A stretch of DNA of 64,000 nucleotides from an uncultured Gammaproteobacteria bacterium (GCA_964411255.1 CAYPKD010000004.1:50147-114146); one strand, 5' to 3'; positions 12,510 to 22,616 are shown, counted from the first letter of the stretch. The notes: generated by a model not told the origin, from the letters alone. Numbers and translations: made by a program.

Positions 12510-13217
12510 TTATTTTAGATCAATTTCTCCTTTAATTTTACCTTCTTTTTTACGTTTTACCAGCTCCTTTATCATTTCTGTTTCATGCTCTTTTATATAT
12601 ACTCTTCCCCCAACATATATATCATCTGGTATTTTTTTATTTTTTATTGAAGTTCCGGATAAACTTAGAGATCCTTCAACTCTAAGGCTATTGGGTAAAC
12701 AATCTATATTTGCGTTCACAAAAGTACAAGTTTGTGTAACATGCAAATTAGCTGGCATCTTTTCAACAGTTGAATTTACTAATGATAAATTGCCATTAAT
12801 GCGTAAATTGTTTGGTAAAAACGATAACTTCATACTTCGTAAGTTTAGATCTGATTTTGTTTTTATTACTGGTAATTCATCTAATATAAAAGCTGCATCA
12901 ACATAATTTGCCGCATTTTCCTCCCAGGAATAAATCTGAATTGCCCAGCTAATTAAATGAGCTCTGGCAACTTTAACGTCTTTAATCTCCTTTTCAACTT
13001 TTTTTTCTTTTATTTTAAGCAACTCATTTTTATAATCAGTATAAAAATTTAATGCTTCCTGCAATTCTCCAGCTTTTTCCGCAGCTACTGCTTTATCCAT
13101 AATCTCACCCAGAAAGTCCTTTTCTTCTGGAGTTAAAGGTACACGCTTAACCTCAGCCCGCCGCGGGCGGACCATTTTTAATTGACTTTCTAATGATTGA
13201 GGTTCTTCTGTTTTCAT
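12510..13217 (-). CDS. Paralog family member P1: conserved N-module plus LRR-like C-terminus
   Basis: N-terminus QSLESQLKMVRPRRAEVKRVPLTPEEKDFLGEIMDKAVAAEKAGELQEALNFYTDYKNELLKIKE. C-terminus has LPNNLRINGNLSLVNSTVEK / MPANLHV / LPNSLRVEGSLSL repeats. Confidence 0.8.
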   Translation of the reverse strand: MKTEEPQSLESQLKMVRPRRAEVKRVPLTPEEKDFLGEIMDKAVAAEKAGELQEALNFYTDYKNELLKIKEKKVEKEIKDVKVARAHLISWAIQIYSWEENAANYVDAAFILDELPVIKTKSDLNLRSMKLSFLPNNLRINGNLSLVNSTVEKMPANLHVTQTCTFVNANIDCLPNSLRVEGSLSLSGTSIKNKKIPDDIYVGGRVYIKEHETEMIKELVKRKKEGKIKGEIDLK

Positions 13218-13220
13218 ATT

Positions 13221-13934
13221 TTACATTTCAGTTATTACTCTACCTCTGATATTACCTTCTGATTTTAATTGGTGGGCTTTGTTAATCACTTTTTTATTGC
13301 AATTTACAAGAAAAATATCTGCTCCAACATATAATTCATCTGGCAAATCCTGAATTGTTGAATTATTCATATCTAGATTTCCATCAACATGCATATTTTC
13401 TGGTAAAGATTCAATTTGGGCGTGATCCATAAGAACGTCTCCATTCACATCTAAATTTGTGCCAATCCATTCTTTTACTACAGCTCTATCCAGATCCAAA
13501 CGTCCATAAATTGTTATATTTGCAGGAAATTCATCGATTACCTTAGCAGCCAATTCTAAATCTCCCACAGTCTCCAGTTTAGGGAGTTTTGGTATATCAA
13601 AAATTTTGTGAGCCTTTTCCTCAAAAGTCATTTCTTCTGGTGGTGTTTTAAAGACATTTTCAACCCACTTTACCAATTTTTCTTTTGTCCAGCCTGTTTC
13701 TTCTTTTTTTTCTTTTTCCCTTGTTTCTTTAATCCTTAACAATTCATTCTTATAATCCGTGTAAAAATTTAAGGCCGCTTGCAATTCTCCTGCCTTTTCC
13801 GCAGCCACAGCCTTATCCATAATCTCACCTAGAAAAGCCTTTTCTTCTGGAGTTAAAGGTACACGTTTAACCTCATGGCGCCGCGGGCGAGCCATTTTGA
13901 GTTGGGATTCGAGTGATTGGGCTTTTTCCTTCAT
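13221..13934 (-). CDS. Paralog family member P2
   Basis: Same N-module. C-terminus has LPENMHVDGNLDMNNSTIQDLPDELYVGADIFL repeats. Confidence 0.8.
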   Translation of the reverse strand: MKEKAQSLESQLKMARPRRHEVKRVPLTPEEKAFLGEIMDKAVAAEKAGELQAALNFYTDYKNELLRIKETREKEKKEETGWTKEKLVKWVENVFKTPPEEMTFEEKAHKIFDIPKLPKLETVGDLELAAKVIDEFPANITIYGRLDLDRAVVKEWIGTNLDVNGDVLMDHAQIESLPENMHVDGNLDMNNSTIQDLPDELYVGADIFLVNCNKKVINKAHQLKSEGNIRGRVITEM

Positions 13935-13937
13935 ATT

Positions 13938-14591
13938 TTATAAAAATTTTATTTCACCTTTGATCAGACCTTTTTCCTTTAATTTATTAAATTTATCCTT
14001 CAACTCATTAAGAGTTTTAATAGTTAATCCTATATCTTCTACATATAAATTCCCACCAATAAATATTGAATCAGGGATATGCATATTTTCAATATCATAA
14101 CCTGGTATTAATAAATTTGCGCCAACATGAAAGTTTTCAGGTAAACTTTTTATTCTTGTATTTCTCAGCGTACAGCTACCTGCAACTTTAAAATTATTCG
14201 GTAATTCTGTGGCATTTGAATCTTCTAATTTAAAATTATCTTTAGTCCTAATTTCATTAGAGTCATCATCCATACAGGTAGGATCAAGCCATTGAAATAT
14301 CCATTCCATTGGATTTCCTTCAATGAATTCATCAGCCCAAGCTTCTAGATCTGCATAACCCCAGGTTTGCTCTACTTTTTCCTTTATTTTCAACAATTCA
14401 TCTTTATATTCTTGATAATATTCAATTGCCTTTGCTAATTCTCCAGCCTTTTCCGCAGCCACAGCCTTATCCATTATCTCACCTAGAAAAGCCTTTTCTT
14501 CCGGAGTAAGCGGTACACGTTTAATCTCAGCGCGTTTTGGGCGGGCCATTTGGAGTTGGGATTCGAGTGATTGTTCTGGAGTATTTTGCAT
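13938..14591 (-). CDS. Paralog family member P3
   Basis: Same N-module. C-terminus has LPNNFKVAGSCTLRNTRIKSLPENFHVGANLLI repeats. Confidence 0.8.
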   Translation of the reverse strand: MQNTPEQSLESQLQMARPKRAEIKRVPLTPEEKAFLGEIMDKAVAAEKAGELAKAIEYYQEYKDELLKIKEKVEQTWGYADLEAWADEFIEGNPMEWIFQWLDPTCMDDDSNEIRTKDNFKLEDSNATELPNNFKVAGSCTLRNTRIKSLPENFHVGANLLIPGYDIENMHIPDSIFIGGNLYVEDIGLTIKTLNELKDKFNKLKEKGLIKGEIKFL

Positions 14592-14596
14592 AGTTC

Positions 14597-21103: not shown

Positions 21104-21129
21104 ATTGTTATATGATATATGTTACATGA

Positions 21130-21852
21130 TTAAAGTTTTTCAGGCATAAATGATGCCTTTTCCGTTTTCATTAATTCTTTAATATACTTTTGTGCTTTTT
21201 TATCTTTTTTTATTGACTCTTCAAGATCCTTTTCAATCTCTGGCTTAATGTCCATCTCAAATCGTTCAAATGATTTTTCTGATAAATTTTCATCATTTAA
21301 AATTTCAATAATTTTCAAACTCTCTTCAGGTAAATTAAAAAAATCAAGCGAATTATCCTTTTCAACATTATATTTGTCAATCAATATTCTTCTAAATTTT
21401 CTCAGACCACCTATTTCAGCCATTGAATCTAAAACGAGCTCTTTTTGATTAACTACAAAATTTATTTCTTCCTGCCAATGCTGCGGGTCATCAGCCTTAG
21501 CCTTAGCCTTTGCCATTGTATATCTGCGAATTAAATAATCTAAAATCATTTCTCTTTTATATAATGTTTTAATATTATCAATTATCTCTTCATGTTTTTT
21601 CTCCTTTATACGATTTATTTCTTTTTTCCTCTCTTCCTGCAATTTATCGTTTATTTTCATTAATTCGTTTTTATAATCAGTATACAAATCTAGGGCTTCT
21701 TTTAGTTTCCCCGCTTTCTCTGCCGCCACTGCCTTATCCATTATCTTTCCGATAAATTCCTTTTCTTCTGGCGTTAAGGGCACACGCTTAACCTCACTCC
21801 GCCGCGAGCGGGCCATCTTCAATTGACTTTCAAGTGATTGTTCTGCTTTCAT
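21130..21852 (-). CDS. Paralog family member P9: N-module plus a helical, charged C-terminal domain
   Basis: Same N-module. The C-terminus has no LRR or WG repeats. Confidence 0.75.
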   Translation of the reverse strand: MKAEQSLESQLKMARSRRSEVKRVPLTPEEKEFIGKIMDKAVAAEKAGKLKEALDLYTDYKNELMKINDKLQEERKKEINRIKEKKHEEIIDNIKTLYKREMILDYLIRRYTMAKAKAKADDPQHWQEEINFVVNQKELVLDSMAEIGGLRKFRRILIDKYNVEKDNSLDFFNLPEESLKIIEILNDENLSEKSFERFEMDIKPEIEKDLEESIKKDKKAQKYIKELMKTEKASFMPEKL

Positions 21853-21867
21853 ATTGGTTTGAGCAAG

Positions 21868-22503
21868 TTACTGTTCTTCCAATCCCTTTACTCTCCCTTC
21901 GTTTATGGCTTTTAGTACAGATTCTCTTAATTTAGTTTTTGATGCATTACTAATAACTTTGCAATCAACTCTAATATCATCAGGCAATACTACAATATCA
22001 GTATCCAACAAATTTAAATTTCCTCTAACATGTAAATTATTGGGTAAATCGCCTAATGATGTGCCTTTTAATGAGAATTCTCCATCAATCTCTAAATTTT
22101 CAGGCATTTCAGTACAATTTTTTTTATGTTCAATTTTAATAGGACTATCAACTATAATTTTTGGATATTTACTAAAATCAACATTAGCATCTGTCCATGA
22201 TTCAATATTTGTATCTTCTATAAAAATTGATGAAAGCCATTCAATAAATTTTTGCCTGGTATTTTTTATTTTTTCAATTTGTTCCTTTTCTTCCTTTATT
22301 TTATTTAATTCATTTTTATAATCTGTATAATACCCCAAAGCCTCAGCCAATTTTCCTGCCTTTTCCGCAGCTACAGCTTTATCCATAATCTCACCTAAAA
22401 AAGCCTTTTCTTCTGGAGTTAATGGCACACGCTTAACCTCACTCCGCCGCGGGCGGGCCATTTGGAGTTGATTTTCTAATGATTGTTTTGGCTTTTCTTT
22501 CAT
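21868..22503 (-). CDS. Paralog family member P10; likely start at MKEKPKQSLEN
   Basis: Same N-module. C-terminus has MPENLEIDGEFSLKGTSLGDLPNNLHVRGNLNLLDTDIVVLPDDIRV repeats. Confidence 0.75.
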   Translation of the reverse strand: MKEKPKQSLENQLQMARPRRSEVKRVPLTPEEKAFLGEIMDKAVAAEKAGKLAEALGYYTDYKNELNKIKEEKEQIEKIKNTRQKFIEWLSSIFIEDTNIESWTDANVDFSKYPKIIVDSPIKIEHKKNCTEMPENLEIDGEFSLKGTSLGDLPNNLHVRGNLNLLDTDIVVLPDDIRVDCKVISNASKTKLRESVLKAINEGRVKGLEEQ

Positions 22504-22521
22504 AATAAAGGTAATATATTT

Positions 22522-22616
22522 CCGCTGATTTGGGATATTCAATTCTGTTAAATAGATCTCTCGACTGCGCCCTTCACAAGCTCAGGGCTTCGCTAGAGAT
22601 GACAGCTGGACAGCGG
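22522..22616. repeat. Dyad-symmetric element copy D, followed by a conserved TTGAAT...TATATT promoter-like box at 22489-22520 for P10
   Basis: CCGCTGATTTGGG...ATCTCTCGActgcgccc...gcTAGAGATGACAGCTGGACAGCGG. Confidence 0.5.

Follow-up and report, generated by a model that had tools for sequence, protein, structure and literature searches.

An N-terminal module shared by twelve paralogous proteins may dock interchangeable binding domains onto a MoxR-vWA machine

Introduction

Why would twelve proteins with such different C-termini all begin with the same module of about 65 amino acids (aa)? The question is raised by a family of twelve genes in a stretch of DNA of 64,000 nt (CAYPKD010000004.1:50147-114146; overall GC 33.2%), referred to below, at its full length, as the window. 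Ten of the genes (P1-P10) lie at 12510-22503 and two (P11 and P12) at 39222-41227, and an original prediction, made from the sequence, had likened their architecture to polymorphic effector or sensor families, adding that it matches no described system. On balance, our analysis favours a model in which the module docks interchangeable binders onto a shared MoxR-vWA machine. As part of this explanation, the family would be restricted to Patescibacteria and the window set would be a lineage-specific expansion, which we also consider the somewhat likelier case. Much of bacterial diversity belongs to the Patescibacteria, whose genomes measure ~1 Mb and most of which are uncultured; with at least 16 family genes on one 365-kb contig of such a bacterium, the family must matter to them.

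Two bodies of work bear on the question. A survey of MoxR-vWA systems (Kaur et al., eLife 2020, PMC7159879) describes pairs in which the metal-ion-dependent adhesion site (MIDAS) of the vWA domain captures an extended client peptide and the ATPase remodels the client, as well as conflict systems with effector-associated domain (EAD) adaptors and hypervariable components that arise through diversity-generating retroelements (DGRs) or module shuffling; in the same survey, candidate phyla radiation (CPR) genomes are left out of the multicellularity statistics. Studies of DGRs report MoxR-adjacent targets with uncharacterised N-terminal extensions (Dore et al., PNAS 2024, PMC10907252) and, in CPR (DGR clade 2), targets with no recognisable N-terminal domain (Roux et al., bioRxiv 10.1101/2020.04.01.020958; Paul et al. 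2017 cited in PMC10907252).

The module and its relatives

A tblastn search of the window recovered exactly twelve copies of the 65-aa module, minus strand throughout and 81.5-100% identical to the module of P4, and an independent repeat search returned a 256-nt unit, likewise in twelve copies, bearing out the original prediction of twelve genes with a common N-terminal module. The abrupt end of similarity behind the module was also confirmed, since in the largest class, the nine LRR-like members, identity is 82% (68-92%) over the first ~71 residues and 26% (20-38%) beyond. The earlier figure of more than 85% identity holds against the consensus and not for every pair, and conservation at the nucleotide level had been overstated: the 47-mer quoted occurs only twice at up to three mismatches, and the module DNA is 70-86% identical.

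The module consists of two parts, a conserved basic peptide (...LKMARPRR.EVKRVPLTPEE) and, behind it, a helical hairpin (KAVAAEKAGELQEAL.LY...), and the AlphaFold2 model of P1 (pLDDT 89.6) comprises a hairpin of helix 30-48 and a long helix 52-96 in addition to weakly predicted N-terminal helices. The module matched no curated family above threshold in Pfam, NCBIfam, PADLOC or PHROGs. Pfam MIT (PF04212) was detected on ten of the twelve window proteins at 14.6-18.5 bits, below its gathering threshold of 30 bits, and the best MIT score among the relatives (25.2 bits, P0020) also falls under this threshold. A profile built from an alignment of 25 diverse modules (A3) matched VPS4A (1yxr, E 5.5e-4) and VPS4B (E 2e-3 to 6e-3) in the PDB over ~50 residues, at positions 29-78 of the profile; the E values for spastin, calpain-7 and katanin all exceeded 0.3, the TPR protein ERCC6L scored equal to the VPS4 matches, and long TPR_12 proteins matched the module via a generic hairpin motif only. 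These sub-threshold but consistent matches suggest that the module, while outside the MIT family, is an MIT/TPR-like hairpin behind a conserved basic peptide. Like the module, the MIT domains of Vps4, spastin, katanin and calpain-7 carry the helix-turn-helix signature KA..ae.KaG...eAl.lY and stand N-terminally ahead of diverse domains, and their recruitment to a common partner resembles the docking role proposed here. The module differs from them in its sub-threshold score, in a hairpin that is modelled with a very long second helix instead of the compact, MIM-peptide-binding three-helix bundle of MIT domains, and in the additional N-terminal basic peptide. For this basic stretch two other readings were dropped: a ribbon-helix-helix (RHH) domain, given no Pfam RHH match, and a Tat signal, given no hydrophobic h-region; in addition, the model is helical.

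When 1.84 billion cluster representatives were searched exhaustively by profile, the yield was 67 proteins at E<=1e-3, of which ~27 are strong matches and mostly genes of the window's own organism; a word-index homologue search with the module returned two proteins, and viral contigs, scanned for the module as well as for the 150-aa protein described below, gave no matches. In the remoter relatives the module stays N-terminal, ahead of WD40, HEAT-like, LRR or beta repeats or of a domain of ~250 aa with ...G[CAS]R... at its end, and in one locus ahead of DGR-diversified domains, so that the predicted architecture of a fixed N-module with swappable binding-type domains is upheld.

Two proteins, P0001 (72 aa, L001 10001-10219, L numbers denoting module or trio loci) and P0055 (90 aa), consist of the N-module with no C-terminal domain. 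Such stand-alone modules could act as docking competitors or regulators.

C-terminal domains

Nine of the twelve C-termini are short LRR-like solenoids, two (P8 and P12) are built of 37-aa beta repeats, and one (P9) is helical. In the P1 model, a beta-solenoid at residues 118-208 is followed by a cap helix, in agreement with the definition of LRRs as solenoids that have a parallel beta-sheet and repeats 20-29 aa long; none of the window proteins matched Pfam LRR at E<=1, and faint LRR matches were seen only in the relatives at L010. The three classes originally proposed thus stand as a grouping, with the addition that the nine LPxNLxVxGxLxL C-termini prove to be mutually diverged homologues with a common C-terminal cap helix. 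The label WG-like for P8 and P12 had to be withdrawn, as no WG_beta_rep (PF14903, WG/KWG) match was obtained in P8, P12, the L003 copy or P0027, and P0063 matched only at E 5.9; the repeats are 37-aa (111-nt) beta repeats instead. P8 is homologous to a 531-aa beta-repeat module protein whose gene neighbours the conserved trio (described below) at L001 (tblastn E 3e-28), and its beta-repeat domain matched no PDB sequence.

No signal peptide or transmembrane (TM) segment was found in the twelve proteins (maximum 19-residue hydropathy <=1.56), no enzymatic, toxin, trafficking, defence or phage family was found on family members in Pfam, NCBIfam, PADLOC or PHROGs, and no small immunity open reading frames (ORFs) lie between the abutting array genes. 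Of the two alternatives offered earlier, sensor therefore fits better than effector, given C-termini that are neither enzymatic nor toxin-like and the lack of immunity genes and export signals. Polymorphic toxin systems combine a trafficking domain, a C-terminal toxin and an adjacent immunity gene, none of which was found in the array, where the C-termini are repeats. Nor is there a DGR in the window, in which no reverse transcriptase (RT) was found among the scanned ORFs and no template repeat/variable repeat (TR/VR) pair was detected.

A conserved trio beside module genes

In related loci the module genes keep company with three further genes, which encode an AAA_5 ATPase, a vWA protein and a protein of about 150 aa. 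L001 reads four module genes, AAA_5, CobT_C/vWA, a 149-aa gene and four more module genes; L011/L018 reads three module genes, AAA_5, module, vWA, a 151-aa gene and module; L014/L015 reads AAA_5, module, bAvd, RT, vWA, the 150-aa gene and module; L016 reads vWA, the 150-aa gene and module; and L023 with L010, on one 294-kb contig, reads four module genes, AAA_5, vWA, a 149-aa gene and at least 11 module genes. Module genes are thus interleaved with the trio in five of the seven independent trio loci (L001, L011/L018, L014/L015, L016 and L023), and the single trio of L023 with L010 has at least 16 of them around it. Since the module family is extremely rare (67 clusters in 1.84e9), chance adjacency to the trio is negligible. 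The trio proteins are 42-61% identical between lineages whose modules are just ~35-45% identical.

The pair of MoxR ATPase and vWA(MIDAS) protein is present at L001, L011, L014, L019, L023 and L024. The ATPase belongs to AAA_5, is MoxR-type and closest to CobS/GvpN, and has an intact Walker A motif. The vWA protein (L001 13761-15743; orthologues at L011, L014, L019, L023 and L024) comprises an N-terminal domain, an acidic linker and a vWA domain with the MIDAS motif DLSGS that is closest to CobT. Its N-terminal domain has no Pfam annotation and contains an invariant HEGxH...EDPRVNN, a pattern consistent with a zinc metallopeptidase. The third protein (L001 15745-16194, P0083) is conserved among Patescibacteria, could be assigned to no family and has the core fold of the MoxR-clade AAA+ module. 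As it lacks a P-loop, it represents a pseudo-ATPase subunit that stands alone, an inactive AAA+ module. Its homologues form 69 clusters, and the only organism names among them are 'Patescibacteria group bacterium' and 'Candidatus Magasanikbacteria'. No Pfam match to VMAP, a peptidase, TIR or the like was found among the genes of the related module and trio loci.

At L019, which belongs to a lineage of 48% GC, the place directly after the 150-aa gene is taken, instead of by a recognisable N-module protein, by a 481-aa protein (10445-11890) with a kinase-like HRDLHLRN...DFDRS.

The module consensus of L001 is indistinguishable from that of the window; the tetranucleotide correlation between the two is 0.988 (within-genome controls 0.992-0.995, other lineages 0.69-0.97); and in two samples, 3300018080 and ERZ27256796, L001 is found together with sequences identical to the window's. 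Because of these three agreements, L001, for which a second count gives seven module genes beside the trio, probably belongs to the window's organism, which would then carry the trio. The named homologues of the trio, together with the synteny shared by L001 and L024, suggest that this organism is a member of the Patescibacteria.

DGR targets and an ATPase fusion

At L014, a DGR (bAvd, RT and TR at 4650-6166) sits between the genes of the MoxR-type ATPase and the vWA protein, and its VRs (4167-4320 and 9531-9685) lie at the 3' ends of the module genes on either side. Every mismatch between the TR (4650-4800) and the two VRs falls at a TR adenine. The DGR is complete and bona fide, so that the module in this lineage heads DGR-hypermutated binding domains.

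A further connection was found at L024 (Candidatus Magasanikbacteria), where the AAA_5 protein is 751 aa long and its C-terminal extension is homologous, over 262 aa, to everything that follows the module in P0034 (E 1e-28). P0034 is in turn homologous to the DGR target P0033 (E 2e-29), whose gene directly follows AAA_5 at L014. One lineage therefore has this domain joined to the ATPase, and another has it behind a module encoded beside the ATPase; as Rosetta-stone evidence, this suggests that the module substitutes for a covalent tether to the ATPase.

A docking model

Taken together, it is proposed that the module attaches each non-enzymatic ligand-binding domain to one cytoplasmic three-protein machine, which would consist of the CobS/MoxR-type AAA_5 ATPase, the CobT-like HExxH-linker-vWA/MIDAS protein and the catalytically dead AAA+ module. 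The docking surface may be provided by the ATPase, or by the vWA MIDAS capturing the N-terminal peptide. The array in the window would then supply recognition arms (LRR-like, beta-repeat and helical) as a germline repertoire, with DGR-hypermutated C-terminal domains in the equivalent role in sister lineages. Docking may be followed by ATP-driven remodelling, or by cleavage of the module or the client by the HExxH domain.

Several points weigh against this model. The trio is absent from the 64-kb window by tblastn and from within 10 kb of L003, and conversely the trio loci L019 and L024 have no module gene inside 10 kb. A copy of the module on the AAA_5, vWA or 150-aa protein was found neither by hidden Markov model (HMM) nor by profile-profile comparison (hhalign probability <1%); the homotypic EAD model is therefore not borne out, and docking would have to be heterotypic. 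In addition, the MIT likeness stays below the 30 bits that Pfam sets as threshold, an enzymatic output domain did not come to light, and the model as a whole is based on sequence and context.

If docking is true, the module would be a new protein-protein coupling domain, and a germline repertoire and somatic-like hypermutation would, in a natural example, serve the same machine. An orphan module family gains a testable partner in the AAA_5/vWA/pseudo-AAA+ trio and is connected to the abundant, unexplained DGR targets of CPR, and the logic of 'MoxR-vWA plus hypervariable component' is extended from multicellular bacteria to ultra-small episymbionts. A more tentative extension, which we regard as possible and clearly less probable than docking as such, is that Patescibacteria possess an innate-immunity-like or host-sensing system, in which one MoxR-vWA-peptidase machine would be served by dozens of interchangeable, module-plugged receptors for invaders or host molecules. 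With the same reserve, receptor diversity might come from germline LRR-like and beta-propeller-like arrays, as in the window, or from DGR hypermutation, as in the sister lineages. Were it true, a single system would have two strategies of diversification, and the N-terminal regions of CPR DGR targets, which have long gone unassigned, would be accounted for.

Comparison with known systems

MoxR-vWA conflict systems resemble the module loci in that a MoxR-clade ATPase and a vWA(MIDAS) protein are encoded beside variable partners, that a small helical terminal adaptor is carried by many paralogues, and that diversification relies on DGRs in some lineages and on domain swapping in others. In those systems as in L014, the DGR target is the gene directly after the MoxR gene and has an uncharacterised N-terminal extension. 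The module also shares general properties of EADs, being a small, non-enzymatic and mostly helical terminal domain that is found on many paralogues with differing partner domains. Unlike the conflict systems, the module loci have no VMAP and no peptidase, TIR or nuclease effector; their adaptor has no copy on the core; the vWA protein bears its own HExxH domain; and the third core gene encodes an inactive AAA+ module. The hosts differ as well, the conflict systems having been described for multicellular bacteria and the module belonging to ultra-small Patescibacteria, and the variability in the window resides in germline LRR-like and beta-repeat paralogues. The original statement that the family matches no described system accordingly holds for the module, to which no family in Pfam, NCBIfam, PADLOC or PHROGs corresponds, and not for its partners, which fit the known MoxR-vWA logic as set out in PMC7159879 and PMC10907252. 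Within that literature on MoxR-vWA systems and DGRs and the libraries searched, the module, the core of HExxH-vWA and pseudo-AAA+ proteins, the germline LRR-like arrays and the Patescibacterial host are without description.

The DGR targets of CPR share with the module proteins a cytoplasmic appearance, with neither TM segments nor a recognisable N-terminal domain, and in some cases an AAA ATPase is the fusion partner of their CLec-type VR domains. L014 is one of these DGR loci, with the module on both of its targets; the tie among CPR DGR targets, a shared N-terminal module and the MoxR-vWA trio is unmentioned in the DGR papers cited above. The window is unlike these loci in having no RT, TR or VR, its variability being spread over twelve fixed paralogues.

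The trio itself is comparable to the chelatase pairs BchI/BchD and CobS/CobT and to midasin (Rea1), which combine an AAA_5/MoxR-clade motor, a vWA/MIDAS domain joined via an acidic linker, and inactive AAA+ modules; unlike the chelatases, the trio has neither a CobN/BchH partner nor a chelatase pathway. Rsa4 and Ytm1, which are clients of midasin, place a small N-terminal MIDAS-binding domain ahead of a WD40 propeller, and this layout of head plus repeats is that of the module family, which differs in a head that is helical and MIT-like, not ubiquitin-like, and in having many clients instead of one or two. F-box-LRR and F-box-WD40 receptors, including the bacterial GALA effectors, likewise join a short N-terminal adaptor-binding module to LRR, WD40 or further binding domains and occur in tandem arrays; they differ from the module family in that there is no sequence similarity and that the partner would be a MoxR-vWA machine and not Skp1.

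Other roles for the module

The family might instead consist of exported effectors or adhesins of an episymbiont, with the module as a signal or chaperone-binding domain for a non-Sec route such as a type IV secretion system (T4SS) or type IV pilus, and with LRR and beta-repeat domains that would bind molecules of the host cell. A conserved head in front of variable LRR, WD40 or HEAT-like domains is indeed typical of translocated effector families, the L001 contig carries a T4SS pilin gene, and T4SSs are widespread in Patescibacteria while their substrate is unknown (PMC12102498). We nevertheless consider export unlikely, both as a route and as an explanation of the repeat domains, since the proteins have neither signal peptide nor TM segment, since it is the ATPase/vWA trio and not any secretion gene that is conserved beside the family, and since one lineage has the variable domain joined directly to a cytoplasmic AAA+ ATPase. 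Moreover, the known T4SS signals are C-terminal.

A slightly less probable alternative is that the module is a homotypic oligomerisation domain of the Death-like or EAD type, through which paralogues would form mixed multivalent complexes independent of, or loosely coupled to, the trio. A small, all-helical, terminal and non-enzymatic domain on many paralogues, at least 16 of them on one contig, would suit this role (PMC7159879 gives a record of 22 paralogues per genome for EAD1), as would the stand-alone module proteins P0001 and P0055. Against it, the defining feature of EADs, a copy on a core component, was looked for and not found, and in the L024 ATPase fusion the module is replaced rather than added to, which points to a heterotypic tether as in the docking model.

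Conservation of the module

The resemblance of the modules need not reflect function at all if tandem 5' ends were homogenised by concerted evolution or gene conversion, as the original prediction had suggested. This was examined by Nei-Gojobori dN/dS, longest common substrings, identity per codon position and a Sawyer-type permutation test. Between window copies of the module, pS is 0.61, median dS 1.10 and dN 0.107 (dN/dS ~0.1); identity at codon positions 1, 2 and 3 is 86%, 93% and 60%, with just 51% at four-fold sites. The longest exact tract common to any two window genes measures 38 nt, and the permutation test gave no globally significant conversion tract (best P=0.14). A dS near saturation, a dN/dS of ~0.1 and the absence of a significant tract show that the module is kept by purifying selection on the protein and that the duplications are old. 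The contrast of dN 0.11 with dS ~1.1, together with the drop in identity from 82% to 26% at the module boundary, further argues that the same function is demanded of all copies.

Some observations do speak for conversion. The summed-squares run statistic (17705) lies above all permutations (14168 +/- 485), the GC content at third codon positions (GC3) and the CGN-Arg usage of the module are abnormally high, as expected of GC-biased conversion, and two neighbouring copies at L003 have 142 identical nt in common. Set against these are the figures for dS, four-fold sites, tract length and tract significance given above, as well as the persistence of the module at 30-45% identity in distant lineages, beyond the reach of conversion. 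As the cause of conservation, conversion was therefore rejected; it is largely refuted for the window and very improbable overall, with a weak mosaic signal remaining.

The module departs sharply in codon usage from the remainder of the genes that carry it: CGN codons make up 96% of Arg and AGA 0% (60% AGA downstream), AAG makes up 53% of Lys (20% in the rest), and GC3 is 0.28-0.49 compared with 0.15-0.23 elsewhere (e.g. module 15086-15280). This bias persists despite a dS of ~1.

At L003, adjacent genes of the beta-repeat and LRR classes (10001-10156 and 11354-11515) have 142-nt 5' ends that are 100% identical, and both copies are disrupted by deletions immediately after the identical stretch; an intact allele of one (P0015) is present in other samples. 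This identity, the sole clear instance of recent homogenisation, reflects either recent recombination or an assembly collapse or artefact.

Finally, targeting of cargo to a shell of major vault protein (MVP), in the way of the INT domain of vPARP or encapsulin targeting peptides, was rejected as the least probable role of all: a genuine MVP homologue does stand between the two clusters, 8 kb away from the main array and 5.7 kb short of P11/P12, but no MVP-like gene occurs in the module loci L001, L003, L010/L023, L011, L014 or L016; in related loci the conserved partner is the AAA_5/vWA trio.

Layout of the array

All family genes are on the minus strand. P1 (12510-13217, 235 aa) carries the N-module, the short-LRR-like beta-solenoid and a C-terminal cap helix, and is followed by four further genes for the N-module with an LRR-like solenoid: P2 (13221-13934, 237 aa), P3 (13938-14591, 217 aa; identical to the representative P0013), P4 (14597-15298, 233 aa) and P5 (15495-16202, 235 aa counted from the true ATG). 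The second group opens with P6 (18284-18943, 219 aa; identical to P0003, and located on contig Ga0309772_1000015) and P7 (18945-19613, 222 aa), both of the same LRR-like type. P8 (19622-21103, 493 aa) joins the N-module to about ten 37-aa beta-strand repeats, and P9 (21130-21852, 240 aa; identical to P0012, with relatives P0020-22) joins it to a helical, Lys/Glu-rich C-terminal domain; P10 (21868-22503, 211 aa counted from the true ATG; identical to P0008) returns to the LRR-like solenoid. Of the distal pair, P11 (39222-39803, 193 aa) has a short LRR-like solenoid and P12 (39845-41227, 460 aa; identical to P0006) has 37-aa beta repeats.

The ten genes of the main group are confirmed, but they form no single array: they are split five and five by genes for AMMECR1 (16204-16737), a SpoU methylase (16793-17260) and QueA (17257-18282), with spacers of 1-55 nt, and the first five are further interrupted between P4 and P5. 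Close packing also holds, over a range of 1-26 nt instead of the 1-15 nt first given, with the P5-P4 gap of 196 nt (15299-15494) as the sole long one. Direct reading of this gap revealed a decayed start, QSQLQMAR, at approximately 15426-15470 on the minus strand, followed by a GC hairpin, GTCCGCCAAGGGCGGAC; the relic, with QSQLQMAR as its 5' end, is a dead thirteenth copy of the N-module. A scan for promoters and terminators gave the same counts as in shuffled sequence.

The contig Ga0309772_1000015 (364,661 bp; JGI 3300029258) bears both the window and, ~90 kb away, the L003 cluster of two intact and two broken module genes, giving at least 16 module copies together.

Other genes in the window

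The MVP homologue is a 996-aa protein encoded at 30525-33515 on the minus strand, with Pfam matches to MVP_shoulder (E 1.4e-23) and Vault_3 (E 9e-5). Its residues 489-915 align with residues 378-801 of solved MVP structures (phmmer E 5e-22, ~420 aa), and its gene has a GC of 43%, well over the window mean of 33%. Bacterial MVP homologues have been reported in Myxococcales, Cytophagales and Oscillatoriales, not in Patescibacteria (bioRxiv 10.1101/872010).

Further genes, all on the minus strand, were recorded. A 691-aa vWA protein (2619-4694), unrelated to the vWA protein of the trio, is encoded directly upstream of two small paralogues (943-1410 and 1884-2501) that are 33% identical to each other, one of them matching Pentapeptide_3. 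A presenilin/signal-peptide-peptidase-type intramembrane protease (PF06550, E 2e-18) is encoded at 26012-26938, and tandem paralogues of Cu-oxidase_4 (PF02578, YfiH-like) at 46319-47134 and 47131-47934 overlap by 4 nt.

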